5,020 nt of DNA from a virus. Taxonomy: Duplodnaviria > Heunggongvirae > Uroviricota > Caudoviricetes. The stretch spans positions 1 through 5,020 of IMG/VR virus record IMGVR_UViG_2684622620_000016. One strand, given 5' to 3'. The notes under the pieces were generated by a model, which was not told the origin of the DNA, made no database searches, and was given only the letters and a program-made list of their open reading frames with translations. Made by a program: the position numbers and the translations under genes. Of this stretch, positions 1 through 5,020 are shown in pieces; the first letter of the stretch is position 1, and each line of letters begins with the position of its first letter.

Positions 1-1
1 G

Positions 2-421
2 TCAGCTTGCCGCTTTCACGATAAACGTCACAACACCAAAGATATCCAGTGTATCTTCGCTATTTATCGTAATGGGTGCATAAGAGCTATTTTCAGGAAC
101 AAGCATAAGTATTGGATGTAACTGCAGACGTTTAACTGTGAACTCGCCATCAATGGCAGCGATAACAATATCTCCATGTGCAGGTTTTCTGGAACGGTCG
201 ACGACCAGCAAATCCCCATTACCGATCCCCGCTCCAGTCATAGAATCACCAGATGATTTCACGAAGTATGTCGCATTTGGATGCTGAACTAATATTTCAT
301 TGAGATCAATGCGTTGTTCAATGTAATCCTGCGCTGGCGAGGGAAAGCCGCATGGGACAAGATCACTAAATAAGGGAAGCGCAACTATCTGGCGCAACTC
401 AGCTGGCGAATAAAACTTCAT
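2..421 (-). CDS. umuD: UmuD-like SOS mutagenesis protein (LexA-like S24 self-cleaving peptidase fold), 139 aa
   Basis: Translation from the internal Met ([30 protein letters not shown]...GDSM...FTVKRL...) matches UmuD in length and motifs: a Cys-Gly cleavage-site-like CGF, the catalytic Ser in GDSM and the Lys in VKRL. ATG is read as cat at 419-421 and stop TGA as tca at 2-4. The ORF-track extension to 553 would run over the operator and the dinI-like start and is rejected. Any umuC partner would lie beyond the window start. Confidence 0.85.
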
Positions 422-438
422 AATAAACTCACTCACAC

Positions 439-467
439 TTACACTGTATATAAATACAGTATATACT
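439..467 (+). promoter_or_regulatory. Putative sigma70 promoter for the dinI-like gene
   Basis: -35 ttacac (439-444), 17-bp spacer, -10 tatact (462-467). LexA box 1 lies in the spacer and box 2 overlaps the -10 and +1. RBS aaagaggag at 483-491 precedes the ATG at 499. Confidence 0.4.
442..461. promoter_or_regulatory. LexA box 1 (SOS box)
   Basis: cACTGTATATAAATACAGTa: CTGT at 444-447, 8-nt AT-rich spacer, ACAG at 456-459. This is a near-perfect match to the E. coli LexA consensus TACTGTATATATATACAGTA. Confidence 0.75.
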
Positions 468-483
468 GGTATTAAACACAGTA
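464..483. promoter_or_regulatory. LexA box 2 (imperfect, CTGG-N8-ACAG)
   Basis: tACTGGTATTAAACACAGTa: CTGG at 466-469 and ACAG at 478-481. As recalled, the chromosomal dinI operator uses the same CTGT/CCAG half-site variant. It overlaps the putative -10 of the dinI-like promoter. Confidence 0.5.
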
Positions 484-498
484 AAGAGGAGTTAAAGC

Positions 499-741
499 AT
501 GTTCGTGGAACTCGTTTATGACAAAAGGAATTTTGATGGTCTGCCCGGTGCAAAAGATATCATTTTGGGCGAGTTAACCAAGAGGGTTCACCGGATCTTT
601 CCCGATGCTGATGTTCGGGTTAAACCGATGATGACACTGCCGGCGATCAACACTGATGCCAGCAAGCATGAGAAGGAACAGATAAGCCGTACTGTTCAGG
701 AAATGTTTGAAGAGGCTGATATGTGGCTGGTTGAAAACTAA
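499..741 (+). CDS. dinI: DinI-like DNA-damage-inducible protein, 80 aa
   Basis: An 80-aa product of the same size as DinI with a recognisable DinI-like pattern ([17 protein letters not shown]...[23 protein letters not shown]). Strong SD (AAAGAGGAG) 8 nt upstream of the ATG, with LexA boxes immediately upstream. Confidence 0.8.
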
Positions 742-770
742 GCGACCAAAAACCCTGATAAAAATCCAGG

Positions 771-791
771 TTACTCGGGTGAGTAATTTCG
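771..791 (+). terminator. Weak hairpin downstream of the dinI-like gene (possible terminator)
   Basis: ttactc-gggt-gagtaa inverted repeat (6-bp AT-rich stem) followed by tttcg. Weak; listed with low confidence. Confidence 0.25.
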
Positions 792-841
792 ACTAATATC
801 CATTATAAAAATGTGAAAAGAAAAGAATATTCGTCAACTCC

Positions 842-1582
842 ATGCCCATTGAATCATTGCGTGTAATCGAAATTATCAGGCGAATACCTGACTGTGCAAC
901 TGAGCCATTTCTCTGCAAATGTGACGATGGTGAGCTTTATGTTGTAAAGGGTATGCCTAGCGTTCCTCGGGTACAACTCATTGCAGAATGGGTATCAGCA
1001 CACCTTGGTTTGAAACTGGGTCTCTCATTGCCTGATTTTAGTACGGCATATGTAGACCGAGCTTTAACTCAGTATGTGCCTGAATGGCGAAATGCCTTAA
1101 ACGAGGGTTATGCGTTTGCAACAAAATTTATCCCGGGCGTAGCCCCTATAACTTTTACCCAAGCCCATACTAACGTTGACGAACAAGACCAAAAGAAAAT
1201 CTATCTCTTTGATAGATGGATAAATAACTCAGATCGTACCCTGTCACCACAGGGTGGCAACGTGAATATTATTTTTGATTACCGTAACAATAGATATTAC
1301 CTGATTGATCATAATCTCGCCTTCGACCAAAATGATGATGAGGAAGCTTTTGACTACCATGTCTATGCTCCGCGGCATCGTAAGTGGTGGTTTGACATCG
1401 TCGACAGACCGCTCTCTGAAGATGAACTAATCCGCACTAAGGAAATCCTACCTTTATGTGTAGAGAGCATCCCTGATGAATGGTTGCCAGAGACTCAAGA
1501 AGAACGAGAAGTGTGTTTGTCTCGAATTGAAACGCTATTGAATCGTAACGAAACAGATGTATTTTGGAGTAAAATCAAATGA
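842..1582 (+). CDS. Hypothetical protein, 246 aa; small HipA-like / PI3-4-kinase-like atypical kinase domain (putative)
   Basis: Long ORF. Motif FDRWINNSDRTLSPQGGN resembles the HipA catalytic loop as I recall it (FNLLIGNTDDHLKN), and YYLIDHNLAFD resembles a Mg-binding DFG-equivalent about 25 residues downstream. N-terminal YVVKG may be a beta3-Lys-like element. The SD before the ATG at 842 is poor. Spot GC counts on 60-nt lines give about 35-43%, lower than flanking genes. The family call rests on motif memory only. Confidence 0.6.
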   Translation: MPIESLRVIEIIRRIPDCATEPFLCKCDDGELYVVKGMPSVPRVQLIAEWVSAHLGLKLGLSLPDFSTAYVDRALTQYVPEWRNALNEGYAFATKFIPGVAPITFTQAHTNVDEQDQKKIYLFDRWINNSDRTLSPQGGNVNIIFDYRNNRYYLIDHNLAFDQNDDEEAFDYHVYAPRHRKWWFDIVDRPLSEDELIRTKEILPLCVESIPDEWLPETQEEREVCLSRIETLLNRNETDVFWSKIK

Positions 1583-2397
1583 CTACGCCATGTCTATACA
1601 GCATTGTAAGATATGCGCCGTTTGCTGAAACTGAAGAGTTTGCAAACATCGGCGTAGTCGTCTGCGCACCTCAAAAACACATATTCCTCTTCCGACTAAC
1701 TCAAAGTAATGACGCCAGGGTTACGTCTTTCTTCAAAGATGACACTATCTTTCCCTTGGCTAAAGATGCTGTTGCTAGGGAGCTGGCCTTTGCTCAAGAG
1801 CAGACAAAAAACGTTAAAACGGCCGATGATGTCGCCAATTTCTTCAGCTATTTGACGGCTAAAAGGGAATCAATCTTTCACTTCAGCTCAACACGTGTAG
1901 TTCTGGCTGAAAACCCAGAGCAAGAGCTACAAAGGTTGTATGCAAAATTTGTAAACCATACAGATTATAACAAAGAGCGTAGAGAAGAGATTCTTACCAG
2001 AGAGCTAAAAGGACGGCTGAATTCTTATGCAGAACTGCAGAATATTTTCCGTAAGGAAACAATCGGCGGGGATTTGATAAGGTTTTCAATGCCGTTCGTT
2101 GCCAAGCAGGAAGATGAAGTACTTTGCGCTATCAAGCCACTCGCGTTCGTCCAGCAGGAACCTGGTAAGATGATGGAACACTGCGACTCATGGGTATCAA
2201 GAGTTAAGCGAGCTGCTGATGAGAAATTGCTGAATCTAGCCAATGTTCTTTTTACCATTGATGGTCATAAAAATCCGAGCACCTCTGAAGCGAAAGCTAT
2301 GGATGAGATTAGGAGAACGTTTGACCGTAACAACCTTGCACACTTTAGACACAATGATGAAAAGTCTATAATCGATTTTGCAAAAGCATCTATCTAA
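1579..2397 (+). CDS. Hypothetical protein, 272 aa, translationally coupled partner of the kinase-like gene
   Basis: The start overlaps the upstream stop by 4 bp (ATGA at 1579-1582). GGAG SD at 1567-1570. No catalytic motif that I can recognise. The N-terminal motif YSIVRYAPFAETEEFANIGVV is faintly reminiscent of a DUF-type family (possibly DUF3037), but I cannot confirm this from memory. Confidence 0.65.
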   Translation: MTTPCLYSIVRYAPFAETEEFANIGVVVCAPQKHIFLFRLTQSNDARVTSFFKDDTIFPLAKDAVARELAFAQEQTKNVKTADDVANFFSYLTAKRESIFHFSSTRVVLAENPEQELQRLYAKFVNHTDYNKERREEILTRELKGRLNSYAELQNIFRKETIGGDLIRFSMPFVAKQEDEVLCAIKPLAFVQQEPGKMMEHCDSWVSRVKRAADEKLLNLANVLFTIDGHKNPSTSEAKAMDEIRRTFDRNNLAHFRHNDEKSIIDFAKASI

Positions 2398-2400
2398 TCG

Positions 2401-2428
2401 ACCCGGCCTATGCGCCGGGTTTTTATTT
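2401..2428 (+). terminator. Rho-independent terminator of the two-gene operon
   Basis: acccggc (2401-2407), 6-nt loop ctatgc, gccgggt (2414-2420), followed by tttttattt. This is a 7-bp GC-rich stem plus a U-tract, 3 nt after the stop at 2395-2397. Confidence 0.85.
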
Positions 2429-2571
2429 CATATTTCAGATTAGACGCCTTGAAACGTCACATTGCTTAAGTACAATCCGCTGCGACTGCCAATCATTCAG
2501 TAAACCACTACAACTATCGAACGTTCGCCAGTTCGCCGATGCCCGTTCTTGCATACGACGAGCCTGCGGTT

Positions 2572-3126
2572 TCATTTATCTCCGGCCGGAAACTTCTTAT
2601 ATAGTGTCGATACACCAACATCATAGATGATCGCCACCTTCTGGCGAGGAACTCCTGATGCAATTAATCGCCCGGCCTGCGCCCATTGTTCTGTTGTAAG
2701 TTTGGGACGACGTCCACCAATTCGTCCCTGTACACGAGCAGCTTCCAGCCCGGCTTTTGTTCTTTCAACAATCAGTTCACGCTCCATTTCAGCCAGGGCA
2801 CCCATCACATGAAAGAAAAAGCGCCCCATTGGTGTGCTGGTATCAATAGCATCCGTCAGGCTGCGAAAATTAACGCCACGTTCGCGCAACTCTTCCACCA
2901 GCACGACAAGATGCCGCATACTGCGCCCCAGTCGGTCCAGTTTCCAGACCACCAGCGTGTCACCTGCCGATAATGTCCTGAGCAGCTTTTTCAGTCCTGG
3001 TCTGTCGGACTTTGTACCGCTTATCTTGTCTTCAAAAATCAGCTCACATCCTGCACAGTTCAACGCATTACGTTGTAGATCGGTGTTCTGGTCATTTGTT
3101 GATACGCGAACATAGCCAATAAGCAT
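2572..3126 (-). CDS. pin: Serine DNA invertase, Pin/Gin/Hin/Cin family, 184 aa
   Basis: Translation from MLIGYVRVSTNDQNTDLQRNALN... (catalytic Ser in the VRVSTxxQ motif) through a C-terminal helix-turn-helix (GVPRQKVAIIYDVGVSTLYKKFPAGDK). From memory it is nearly identical to Pin of E. coli e14. Start ATG at 3124-3126 with SD AGGAGGAG just upstream on the minus strand. The 12 extra N-terminal residues in the ORF track are rejected. Confidence 0.95.
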   Translation of the reverse strand: MLIGYVRVSTNDQNTDLQRNALNCAGCELIFEDKISGTKSDRPGLKKLLRTLSAGDTLVVWKLDRLGRSMRHLVVLVEELRERGVNFRSLTDAIDTSTPMGRFFFHVMGALAEMERELIVERTKAGLEAARVQGRIGGRRPKLTTEQWAQAGRLIASGVPRQKVAIIYDVGVSTLYKKFPAGDK

Positions 3127-3180
3127 GATAGCTCCTCCTGACAAAAACAGGAACGATGCCATTTGCGCGCTATTTCTGCA

Positions 3181-3264
3181 TTTTCATAAACGTTGGTTTG
3201 NNNNNNNNNNNNNNNNNNNNNNNNNNNNNNNNNNNNNNNNNNNNNNNNNNTTGGTTTGAGAGAA
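3181..3264. other. Putative invertase crossover site (gix/pix/hix-like), interrupted by the N gap
   Basis: Left flank ttttcataaacg|tt|ggtttg (3181-3200) and right flank ttggtttgagagaa (3251-3264) resemble the 12-2-12 Gin-family site architecture (TTnnnnnAAACC NN GGTTTnnnnnAA). It is located between the invertase 5' end and the start-less fibre cassette, as at Mu gixR and e14. Confidence 0.45.
3201..3250. other. Run of 50 N (assembly gap or masked sequence)
   Basis: Directly visible in the sequence. The same octamer ttggtttg sits on both sides of the gap (3193-3200 and 3251-3258). Confidence 1.
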
Positions 3265-3885
3265 GGTTCATTTGGGTTCAGAAATCTGGTTACCTTCACA
3301 ACGGCTGGAGTAACAAGCTGGACTGTTCCTGAAGAGTTGCGCAAAGGAAGAAAATGTTACGTCAAAGTTATTGGTGGCGGTGCGTCAGGAGGGATAGGTT
3401 CAACAACCGCTTCAGCCGTTACATGTGGCGGAGGAGGTGGTGGGGGCGGAGTTGCTGAGGGACTGGTAGATTTAACTGGTATAAACAGTGTTTCGATTAC
3501 GGTTGGTGCCGGTGGTGCGCCTGTGTCTGGTATTTCTGTAAACGGTAAAAATGGTGGCTCGAGCAGTTTCGGGACTTACATGTCAGCTTCCGGAGGCTAT
3601 AGCGGAGGCCAGCCTTCCGGAGGGTTAGGCGCAGTTGGTGTCGGGGGAACAATTAATACATCGCTTGGGCCAGGTTCTCCAGGTTCCATTGCTTCTGCCG
3701 CATCGGGGGCTGGTAATGGTGGTTCTGGTGGTGGCCCCGGAGGAGCAGGTTCATTCAGAGATACAGCTAACGGAAAAGCGGTATCAGCAGTTGGGCCTGG
3801 AGGTGGCGGTGCTGGATTATGTCCTAATTCATCAACGGGTCAGTCGGGTGCCGGAGCAGATGGCGCAGTTTATATTTACTGGTGA
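3253..3885 (+). CDS. Tail-fibre C-terminal variable segment (Sv'-type), glycine-rich, start-less (5' end undefined because of the gap)
   Basis: Open frame from the gap to TGA at 3883-3885 with no plausible start or SD. The product is extremely Gly/Ser-rich with repeated poly-Gly blocks (GGGASGG, GGGGGGGG, GAGGAP, GGYSGGQPSGG, GNGGSGGGPGGAG, GPGGGGAG). Its position next to the invertase site matches the silent alternative fibre tip of Mu, P1 and e14 inversion systems (stfE-like). Confidence 0.7.
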   Translation, partial: GLREGSFGFRNLVTFTTAGVTSWTVPEELRKGRKCYVKVIGGGASGGIGSTTASAVTCGGGGGGGGVAEGLVDLTGINSVSITVGAGGAPVSGISVNGKNGGSSSFGTYMSASGGYSGGQPSGGLGAVGVGGTINTSLGPGSPGSIASAASGAGNGGSGGGPGGAGSFRDTANGKAVSAVGPGGGGAGLCPNSSTGQSGAGADGAVYIYW

Positions 3886-3892
3886 GGTTCAT

Positions 3893-4063
3893 ATGTGGGC
3901 AAGAATTGAAGAAAATAAAGTAGAAGAGATAACGGAAATTAATCCTGAAGGAAGATTCCATCCATCATTAATATGGAAAGAATGCCCTGCTGACACACAG
4001 CAGGGGGATTTATATATTGATGGTGAGTTTATTGCGCAGTCTCCGGCAGTTCAGGCCAGATAA
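3893..4063 (+). CDS. Short ORF, 56 aa, immediately downstream of the Gly-rich fibre segment; possible small cognate chaperone or truncated tail-fibre assembly protein
   Basis: ATG at 3893 preceded by GAGG (3884-3887). Product MWARIEENKVEEITEINPEGRFHPSLIWKECPADTQQGDLYIDGEFIAQSPAVQAR. It lacks the conserved tail-fibre assembly C-terminal motif. Its 3' end overlaps the convergent tail-fibre assembly gene by about 35 nt. Confidence 0.4.
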   Translation: MWARIEENKVEEITEINPEGRFHPSLIWKECPADTQQGDLYIDGEFIAQSPAVQAR

Positions 4064-4637
4064 CATCCGGCGCGGTGCTGGTATCTGTTGCCGTCACCGC
4101 GTCAATGTAATCCAACACCGTGTTAAGTCGGCTGGTTTCTGACTGCGTCAGATTCCGTCCGGCCTGTAATTTCAGCTGAATCAGACTGATGGAAGCCATT
4201 GCAGCATCAATCAGTGACTGACGCTGTGCTTCTGCCGCGTCTACTGCGGCGCTATGCTGTGCCTCAGTATCGGTCACCCATTTCTCACCATCCCATTTAT
4301 CGTATGGCGTTAATGGGGCGATAGTGGTTGTATTTTCAGGATAATCACCCGGTGCTGTGATTTCTTTCGATTCTCCTGTTTCGGTGCTATAGACGATTTC
4401 ACTGCGATGGTCTGGCACATATTCCCACGAGTTATAATCTGCAGAACGGCAAATTGCATAACCAGCTTTATATGAGCCGGGAGCATCTAAACAGGAACAT
4501 GCCGGAATGCCGACACCCACAGCAAGATATTCAGTTGATGTGAAAATATATTCCCGTGTTTCACCATCATAGTTATAAACAGTAATATTTCCTGCCTGGG
4601 TGGCGATAAATTCGTTATTTAATACGGCGTAATCCAT
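4029..4637 (-). CDS. tfa: Tail fibre assembly protein (lambda Tfa / Mu U family), 202 aa
   Basis: The C-terminus (LNTVLDYIDAVTATDTSTAPDVIWPELPE) matches the conserved tail-fibre assembly motif (lambda ...RVDTSTAPDIEWPAVP). The central PENTTTIAPLTPYDKWDGEKWVTDTEAQ matches lambda [28 protein letters not shown]. The start ATG overlaps the upstream stop in a TAATG arrangement (4635-4639), with SD GAGGG upstream. Confidence 0.9.
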   Translation of the reverse strand: MDYAVLNNEFIATQAGNITVYNYDGETREYIFTSTEYLAVGVGIPACSCLDAPGSYKAGYAICRSADYNSWEYVPDHRSEIVYSTETGESKEITAPGDYPENTTTIAPLTPYDKWDGEKWVTDTEAQHSAAVDAAEAQRQSLIDAAMASISLIQLKLQAGRNLTQSETSRLNTVLDYIDAVTATDTSTAPDVIWPELPETAQ

Positions 4638-5020
4638 TATGCAGCCCTCACGATATACGCAAATGCCAGGTTCCGTGGTCTGGTTTCTTTAATTAAAGAG
4701 GAGGCATCAGGTGAACTCACTGATTCAGCACCATTTCTTCCACCAGTGGTATAAGTAAAAACTCTTTCACTGTTAGACCAGTAATCCACACCAACTGTTT
4801 TTGCTGATGAAAAAATGGTTTCATCAGATATAACCTGTTCTATTCCATACGGGATATTAGTAACTGACCCCACTTTTGTAGGTATTCCATGATTATGAGA
4901 AATTACTGCATGCTCTTGATTCGTTAATAAAGTACGACCGCTATCCACTCCACGCCCGTCATCCCAGCCACGAATAAACTCACCACGTAAATCAGGCAAT
5001 TTATTTGTCGGGTAAGCCTT
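4637..5020 (-). CDS. Tail fibre protein, C-terminal part (phage tail-collar-like domain); partial, 5' end beyond the window
   Basis: The frame is open from the window edge (...KAYPTNKLPDLRGEFIRGWDDGRG...ETRPRNLAFAYIVRAA, then stop). The LPDLRGxFxRG and ETRPRN..YIVR motifs are typical of phage tail collar / fibre C-terminal domains. The TTG start in the ORF track at 4999 is an artefact. The stop is coupled to the tail-fibre assembly start. Confidence 0.85.
   Translation of the reverse strand, partial: KAYPTNKLPDLRGEFIRGWDDGRGVDSGRTLLTNQEHAVISHNHGIPTKVGSVTNIPYGIEQVISDETIFSSAKTVGVDYWSNSERVFTYTTGGRNGAESVSSPDASSLIKETRPRNLAFAYIVRAA

Follow-up and report, generated by a model that had tools for sequence, protein, structure and literature searches.

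A glycine-rich cassette with a predicted Pam3-like fold as a candidate alternative tail-fibre tip beside the pin invertase of an e14-like Escherichia coli prophage

The P segment of e14, the G segment of Mu and the C segment of P1 are invertible DNA segments in which a Pin invertase acts on two convergent tip-plus-chaperone cassettes, and both orientations are found in genomes (PMC12529663). Here we describe a locus of the same organization in positions 1 to 5,020 of the IMG/VR virus record IMGVR_UViG_2684622620_000016, a 5,020-nucleotide (nt) stretch that we refer to as the window, in which a glycine-rich open reading frame (ORF) of 210 codons lies next to a pinE-type serine DNA invertase gene (Table 1). 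A megablast search against complete E. coli genomes identifies the region as the end of an e14-like prophage; in the matching genomes the invertase gene is labelled pinE, the gene convergent on the glycine-rich ORF is labelled tfaE, and the labels stfP and 'glycine-rich domain-containing protein' are also found. We hold with good confidence that the ORF encodes one of two alternative C-terminal receptor-binding modules of a single fibre gene in an e14-like prophage with a Mu-type baseplate, that the modules are switched by Pin, and that this one is followed by a putative tentacle-type helper.

The tip resembles that of the cyanophage Pam3 (PDB 7YPX, 7YFW), whose tail fibre protein gp24 docks through a helical N-terminal domain and continues with a TNF-like sandwich and then a glycine-rich domain of six loops in which 12 Gly-rich motifs build a four-layer lattice. 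Conservation in gp24 drops toward the distal tips, the proposed site of receptor binding, and the chaperone gp25 has a beta-sandwich 'tentacle' (residues 1–55) that grips the TNF-like/Gly-rich junction and a trimerising helical bundle (residues 64–162) (PMC9608196). A 2026 survey groups the Pam3 fibre with Bxb1 gp33 and gp29, S16 gp38 and ALK as glycine-rich bundles of polyproline-II (PPII) helices (PMC13243192). In contrast to Pam3 gp24, the tip described here is an exchangeable cassette within an invertible segment and is joined to a different N-terminal module; the putative chaperone comprises the client-binding domain alone, without the 100-residue helical trimerisation domain of gp25, and the host is enterobacterial.

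The cassette adjoins pinE at an e14-type crossover site, TTGGTTTGAGAGAAGG, and stands in the window in the invertase-proximal, unfused orientation, with no constant fibre N-terminus next to it. In strain UTAK-5 the segment has the opposite orientation, and a 307-codon ORF there combines the 96-residue N-terminus of StfP with exactly these 210 residues, joined in frame at ...ENLGL|REGSFGF.... This 307-residue fusion is protein P0001, from a cluster of 98 member sequences. Of 5426 complete E. coli genomes, 57 carry the cassette, 34 of them at 99% DNA identity or more; the pin-side junction occurs in 19 genomes and the StfP-fused junction in 26 (UTAK-5 and 25 others). Because both junction types occur, we conclude that the segment inverts in nature. 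The same cassette is also joined at LGL|(R/G)EG to several unrelated fibre N-termini (P0002, P0005, P0006, P0007 and P0015). The fused ORF of UTAK-5 comes after ymfQ and baseplate J, and distant homologues of about 315 residues directly follow Baseplate_J and Phage_Wedge1 genes in contigs of Pam3/E217-like myophages; in the fused orientation the gene thus has both the position after baseplate wedge genes and the N-terminal docking domain of a tail fibre. The original prediction, made from the DNA letters without database searches, had called the cassette the invertible C-terminus of a side tail fibre, lying in a silent position. The fusions and the unfused orientation in the window agree with this, and the product is a tail fibre, but 'side' is a loose term for a gene located after the baseplate genes of a contractile tail of Mu/e14 type.

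The left half of the invertase-proximal crossover site (pix) ends in ...ataaacgttggtttg, and its right part, ttggtttgagagaagg (3251–3266), overlaps the first codons of the cassette (GLREG). This right part is identical at 15 of 16 positions to the published repeat of the e14 P segment, TTGGTTTGGGAGAAGG (PMC12529663), and, as in e14, it lies at the junction of constant and variable parts. The complete two-cassette arrangement is visible in L001 and L002, where the intact crossover sites read aaacgttggtttgagagaagg and gaaaaccttggtttgagagaagg; the DNA of the fused junction is gaaaaccttggtttgagagaagg, and the invertase-side site is aaacgttggtttgggagaagg. We read these sites by eye from L001 and L002; an automated repeat search missed them, the repeats being short and imperfect. 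The locus has the adjacent Pin/Gin/Hin-type serine invertase and the two orientations of a Din-family switch. Of the two inverted crossover sites, both intact in L001 and L002, the window shows the proximal one, split by a run of Ns; the distal one would lie past its end. It differs from e14 of K-12 in the content of the cassettes, since K-12 carries a Gp53-like_C variable part of StfP and a 137-residue TfaP, as opposed to a Gly_rich_2 tip and a 56-residue putative chaperone here.

The run of 50 Ns is at the exact centre of the crossover site, with ttggtttg duplicated on both flanks, and relatives have no extra DNA at this position. When the Ns and one copy of ttggtttg are deleted (58 nt), the junction becomes the one that is contiguous in 19 complete genomes, with ATG 3156 in frame with the cassette. 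The run looks like a scaffold gap or a mask at the inversion breakpoint. In a separate fibre variant, P0019 (2 member sequences), the first 95–103 nt of the cassette are inverted in place between CCTT/AAGG boundaries (window 3249–3351), which swaps the first 32 residues for a reading of the opposite strand; the invertase may have acted at a pseudo-site here, or the variant may be an artefact of assembly.

The glycine-rich ORF is intact, with 210 codons followed by TGA, and 63 of its 210 residues (30%) are Gly. Its reading frame is open upstream into the run of Ns, such that the true 5' end is not directly readable in the window. A simple pattern scan gives seven Gly blocks (residues 41–43, 46–49, 59–66, 85–88, 123–126, 152–166 and 181–188), one of which, 59–66, consists of eight consecutive Gly; additional GG pairs are found elsewhere, and the protein ends in VYIYW. 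The length of about 210 residues, the at least seven Gly blocks and the terminal motif had been noticed at the outset, and translation bears them out. The cassette matches positions 1–225 of the 226 in the Pfam family PF21722 (Gly_rich_2; E 1.8e-11, 44.9 bits against a cut-off of 24.3), and 103 homologues, almost all of them with PF21722, were recovered among 5.8 billion proteins searched. Ten Gly columns are invariant across 72 aligned homologues, and 50 columns contain at least 50% Gly in a set of 40 sequences that are mutually less than 80% identical. With the confident structural model described below, these observations establish that the cassette is not chance low complexity. We did not adopt the label of its best PHROGs family, phrog_863 'tail fiber assembly', which conflicts with the fold evidence. 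A tblastn search of a phage collection found the cassette in two records only, probably through low-complexity filtering, and the collection therefore says little about how frequent the tip is in isolated phages.

An AlphaFold2 model built with the 72 homologues is compact and confident (predicted local distance difference test score 92.9, predicted template modelling score 0.90) and shows some twelve short strands. Confidence is high in the long Gly runs too, yet they receive no DSSP assignment, as happens with PPII and polyglycine-II (PGII) strands. The best structural match to the model is the Pam3 tail fibre (7ypx_A; score 21.3, 190 residues, root mean square deviation 2.7 Å, 29% identity), followed by Bxb1 gp33 (16.9), Bxb1 gp29 (11.3) and four entries of the ALK glycine-rich domain (9.0–9.4); the next best match scores 4.7, and Foldseek gives the same ranking. 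These matches are experimentally solved PPII/PGII bundles (PMC13243192). Independently of the model, a profile of the 72 homologues matches the Pam3 fibre (7YFW/7YPX) with E 8e-6, collinear to the C-terminal strand. The predicted fold is a TNF-like beta-sandwich with Gly-rich hairpins inserted between its strands, interleaved with a PGII-type bundle as in Pam3. We infer the PGII geometry of the Gly strands from the confident runs that DSSP leaves unassigned and from homology to solved PPII bundles; the tip is presumably trimeric. The other matches come from different settings: Bxb1 gp33, the 'tail wing brush', and the gp29 tail spike subdomain (PDB 9D93) belong to the tail tip of a mycobacteriophage siphovirus, have another position in the particle and are not invertible, whereas the extracellular TNF-like plus glycine-rich (TG) domain of ALK/LTK (PDB 7LRZ, 7LIR, 7NX1) is larger, has 14 PGII helices and belongs to metazoan cytokine receptors of unrelated function.

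Sequence variation in the family is concentrated between the Gly blocks, a pattern that the original prediction had suggested looking for in an alignment of homologues. Across the 40 sequences that are mutually less than 80% identical, mean column entropy is 0.65 bits for Gly columns, 1.81 bits for the non-Gly core, and 2.77 bits for the six inter-Gly segments (residues 48–58, 89–99, 117–122, 142–156, 167–180 and 189–198), and these segments also hold the insertions and indels. When the comparison is limited to alleles at least 90% identical to the window, the segments contain 19 of the 24 variable sites (Fisher p 1.3e-6). A comparable tip, TNF-like plus Gly-rich, is found in TFP_Y of the Klebsiella phage SCNJ1-Y and in other gp24-homologous fibres; TFP_Y has experimental support as a receptor-binding protein, binds lipopolysaccharide, and acquires host-range mutations within its Gly-rich domain (PMC12671077). 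It is not invertible. By analogy, a receptor-binding role of the cassette is well supported; binding would be through the distal hairpin tips, where variation is concentrated, and the receptor is probably lipopolysaccharide.

The 56-codon ORF that follows has its ATG 7 nt past the cassette stop, with GAGG upstream, and is probably translationally coupled to the cassette. In a tblastn search it was found only in the two phage records that have the Gly-rich tip, and in both it is downstream of the tip gene. Distant loci contain a long form, a 118–119-residue ORF directly after the fibre gene, with the same N-terminal 50 residues and a helical tail. A profile search of all PDB sequences gave a single and weak match, based on an alignment of 8 sequences, to residues 6–64 of the Pam3 chaperone gp25 (E 0.045), and by this comparison the predicted 56-residue protein corresponds to the gp25 tentacle alone. 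An exhaustive profile search yielded 690 cluster representatives at E ≤ 1e-3. In the 150 listed, the domain is almost always N-terminal; 20 of the 149 best matches to the small-ORF profile are no longer than 72 residues, indicating that the stand-alone form recurs. No family for the ORF was found in Pfam or PHROGs. Two longer versions, a 142-codon ORF at 3635–4063 and a 67-residue call by PGAP, were rejected because all homologues start at MWARI; the additional upstream codons come from Gly-codon DNA in which stops are scarce. The small protein may define a class of trimerisation-free fibre chaperones, or it may remain on the fibre as part of the adhesin.

Several observations concern the surroundings of this small ORF. 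It overlaps the convergent tfaE by 35 nt at their 3' ends (window 4029–4063), and it ends in PAVQAR, exactly as K-12 TfaP does; the limit of the exchanged cassette thus appears to fall inside the shared overlap. A perfect 8-bp GC-rich hairpin, CCCTGCTG...CAGCAGGG, is located at 3985–4005, within the 56-residue ORF and a short distance upstream of the tfaE stop. It has a terminator-like score on either strand and may serve the two convergent cassettes as a bidirectional terminator placed between them. Small proteins of this type are seen in two phages. The P2-like Yersinia phage vB_YpM_MLG42 (L003 3001–3805) has an unfused Gly-rich cassette and a 55-residue mini-chaperone, convergent on the H and G genes; the annotation shows no invertase gene in the 3 kb to its left or right, making this an orphan silent cassette. 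In the Pseudomonas phage Amjad_SA (L004 3332–6049), a 421-residue Gly_rich_2 fibre, a 419-residue polysaccharide deacetylase-domain protein and a 59-residue mini-chaperone succeed one another in this order and are all annotated as hypothetical.

We propose that Pin flips a segment containing two convergent tip-plus-chaperone cassettes. In the state of the window, the module abuts pin without the 96-residue baseplate-docking N-terminus; since it is unfused, the collar-type tip with TfaE is expected to be the one joined to the fibre gene, at a junction outside the window. Inversion would join the module in frame through a crossover site encoding ...NLGL|REG..., giving the 307-residue fibre, and we infer that the fused TNF-like/polyglycine tip would then be expressed together with the mini-chaperone, changing receptor specificity. 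The module would fold like the distal two domains of Pam3 gp24, with a proximal TNF-like sandwich and five or six Gly-rich hairpins that emerge between its strands and pack as a PGII-type lattice. Conserved Gly stems would hold the variable hairpin tips, which would contact the receptor. By analogy with gp25, the 56-residue protein would act as a stand-alone client-binding tentacle that shields the TNF-like/Gly-rich junction while the tip folds.

Some points do not favor this proposal. The window includes neither the second crossover site nor the constant fibre N-terminus, and Ns interrupt the proximal site. The inter-Gly segments were picked from the conservation profile, which makes the entropy contrast partly circular and the close-allele test the more independent of the two. 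The match of the small protein to gp25 is the weak one from only 8 aligned sequences, and the protein has no helical trimerisation domain, which was deemed essential for assembly in the Pam3 work. Finally, L001, the closest full-coverage relative, is frameshifted in both the cassette and tfaE, and the prophage may be defective. This last point is consistent with the cassette being a decaying remnant in a defective prophage, with no current function in this strain, and e14-type elements are often cryptic; in addition, PGAP marks many of the neighbouring genes as pseudogenes. We consider decay unlikely: both the cassette and the 56-residue ORF are intact in the window, the cassette is 100% identical to fused copies, its near-identity extends to the 34 genomes noted above, and both orientations are common.

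The pin-side junction raises the question of whether the pin-proximal copy is silent. With the Ns and the duplicated 8 nt removed, ATG 3156 (MPFARYFCIFINVGL...) is in frame with the cassette, and in several genomes of this orientation PGAP gives ORFs of this kind the name 'glycine-rich domain-containing protein'; an anchorless TNF-like/polyglycine protein could then act in the lysogen, for example as a receptor-masking anti-phage factor like StfE2, the pin-proximal chimera of K-12 e14 that is reported to block T2 adsorption (PMC12529663). If so, Pin inversion would toggle host defence as well as fibre specificity. However, an ORF call is no evidence of expression, and a promoter scan of the + strand upstream found no promoter-like site, with counts at the level of shuffled sequence. 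Moreover, the protein has no signal peptide or export route, the K-12 cassette has a different fold (Gp53-like_C), and no PADLOC model matches either the cassette or the small ORF. We regard a role of the unfused copy in the lysogen as quite improbable and retain the view that it is the silent alternative of an invertible fibre tip.

A further question is the relationship of the tip to the gp38 adhesins of T2 and S16 (PDB 6F45), to which the original prediction had likened it by pattern. The cassette is indeed a glycine-rich, polyglycine-type distal tip of a tail fibre, and, as in gp38, conserved Gly-rich motifs frame hypervariable segments; in gp38 a PGII lattice built of such motifs carries the variable receptor-binding loops at its far end, and the cassette would have a similar lattice. 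Glycine-rich bundles of this kind are described as resembling each other (PMC13243192), and Pam3 gp24 locally superposes on S16 gp38 with 2.7 Å over 52 C-alpha atoms (PMC9608196). A gp38-type adhesin fused to the fibre, as a true homologue with the same PGII sandwich, is nonetheless very unlikely. The gp38 family does not match the cassette in Pfam at E ≤ 0.1, no gp38 chain appears in the search of all PDB sequences with the cassette profile at E ≤ 10, and no whole-domain fold match was detected. In gp38 the gp37-attachment helices, a beta-helix middle domain and the PGII sandwich form a three-domain fold that the cassette lacks, having an interleaved TNF-like sandwich in its place, and gp38 is a polypeptide of its own, a monomer capping the gp37 trimer, whereas the cassette is the C-terminus of the fibre protein itself. 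Homology to gp38 was rejected on these grounds; since the literature places all these bundles under one architectural motif, the PPII/PGII helical bundle (PMC13243192, PMC9608196), the analogy of architecture is fair and family membership is not. It is scarcely credible that the cassette is a linker, collagen-like or of low complexity, or a frame that is open by chance in G-rich DNA, in either case without a folded domain. The 30% Gly and the open shifted frames such as 3635–4063 speak for such a reading, as does a single-sequence phmmer search of the PDB that gave only low-complexity noise (AF4/FMR2) where a profile was needed to find the relatives; the full-length PF21722 match, the 103 homologues, the conserved Gly columns and the compact model reject it.

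The fold, the Pfam family, the PGAP product name and the principle of invertible fibres were already known; what is new is the recognition of the E. coli cassette as a Pam3-type tip, the documentation of both orientations, and the putative stand-alone tentacle chaperone. A prophage ORF usually annotated as 'hypothetical' or 'glycine-rich domain-containing' in E. coli thereby receives a solved fold and a probable function, in place of a tempting but mistaken link to gp38. Among enterobacterial phages the Pam3-type tip circulates in plug-in form: at the invertase crossover site it is attached to N-termini of the e14 StfP type and to others unrelated to these. The compact 210-residue tip, its putative 56-residue helper and the defined splice point are of interest for host-range engineering, and the locus is useful for reading other phase-variable prophage loci. 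The putative stand-alone tentacle chaperone poses a small, testable puzzle for models of fibre assembly.

The layout of the window (Table 1) is based on an ORF listing and Pfam scans, with PHROGs used for the fibre genes. The collar-type tip runs off the right end of the window, toward the constant fibre N-terminus and the second crossover site.

Table 1. Features of the 5,020-nt window, in order of position.
Feature	Position	Strand	Basis or remark
umuD-like gene	left part of window, before dinI	-	ORF listing/Pfam
dinI	499-741		ORF listing/Pfam
HipA_2 kinase	842-1582		Pfam
DUF3037 protein	1579-2397		Pfam
pinE-type serine DNA invertase, 184 residues, start MLIGYVRVS	2575..3126	-	Pfam Resolvase E 7e-51, HTH_7 E 2e-14
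Invertase-proximal crossover site (pix)	3181..3266		split by 50-N run 3201-3250
Run of 50 N	3201-3250		inside crossover site
Alternative fibre-tip cassette (predicted), 210 residues + TGA stop, unfused	3253..3885	+	ORF, Pfam PF21722
56-residue 'tentacle-only' putative fibre chaperone	3893..4063	+	probable homology to N-terminal beta-sandwich of Pam3 gp25 (residues 1-55)
tfaE-type tail fibre assembly protein, for other cassette	4029..4637	-	Pfam Caudo_TAP E 4.8e-32, phrog_105 E 2e-96
Alternative collar-type fibre tip, C-terminal part	4637..5020	-	phrog_523 'tail collar fiber protein' E 2.7e-37

On the other side of the invertase gene, the HipA_2 kinase and DUF3037 genes match both genes of the PADLOC candidate defence system PDC-M66 (A, E 3e-12; B, E 8e-16). 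The pair adjoins pinE at the place where e14 of K-12 has mcrA, and is flanked by dinI and umuD.
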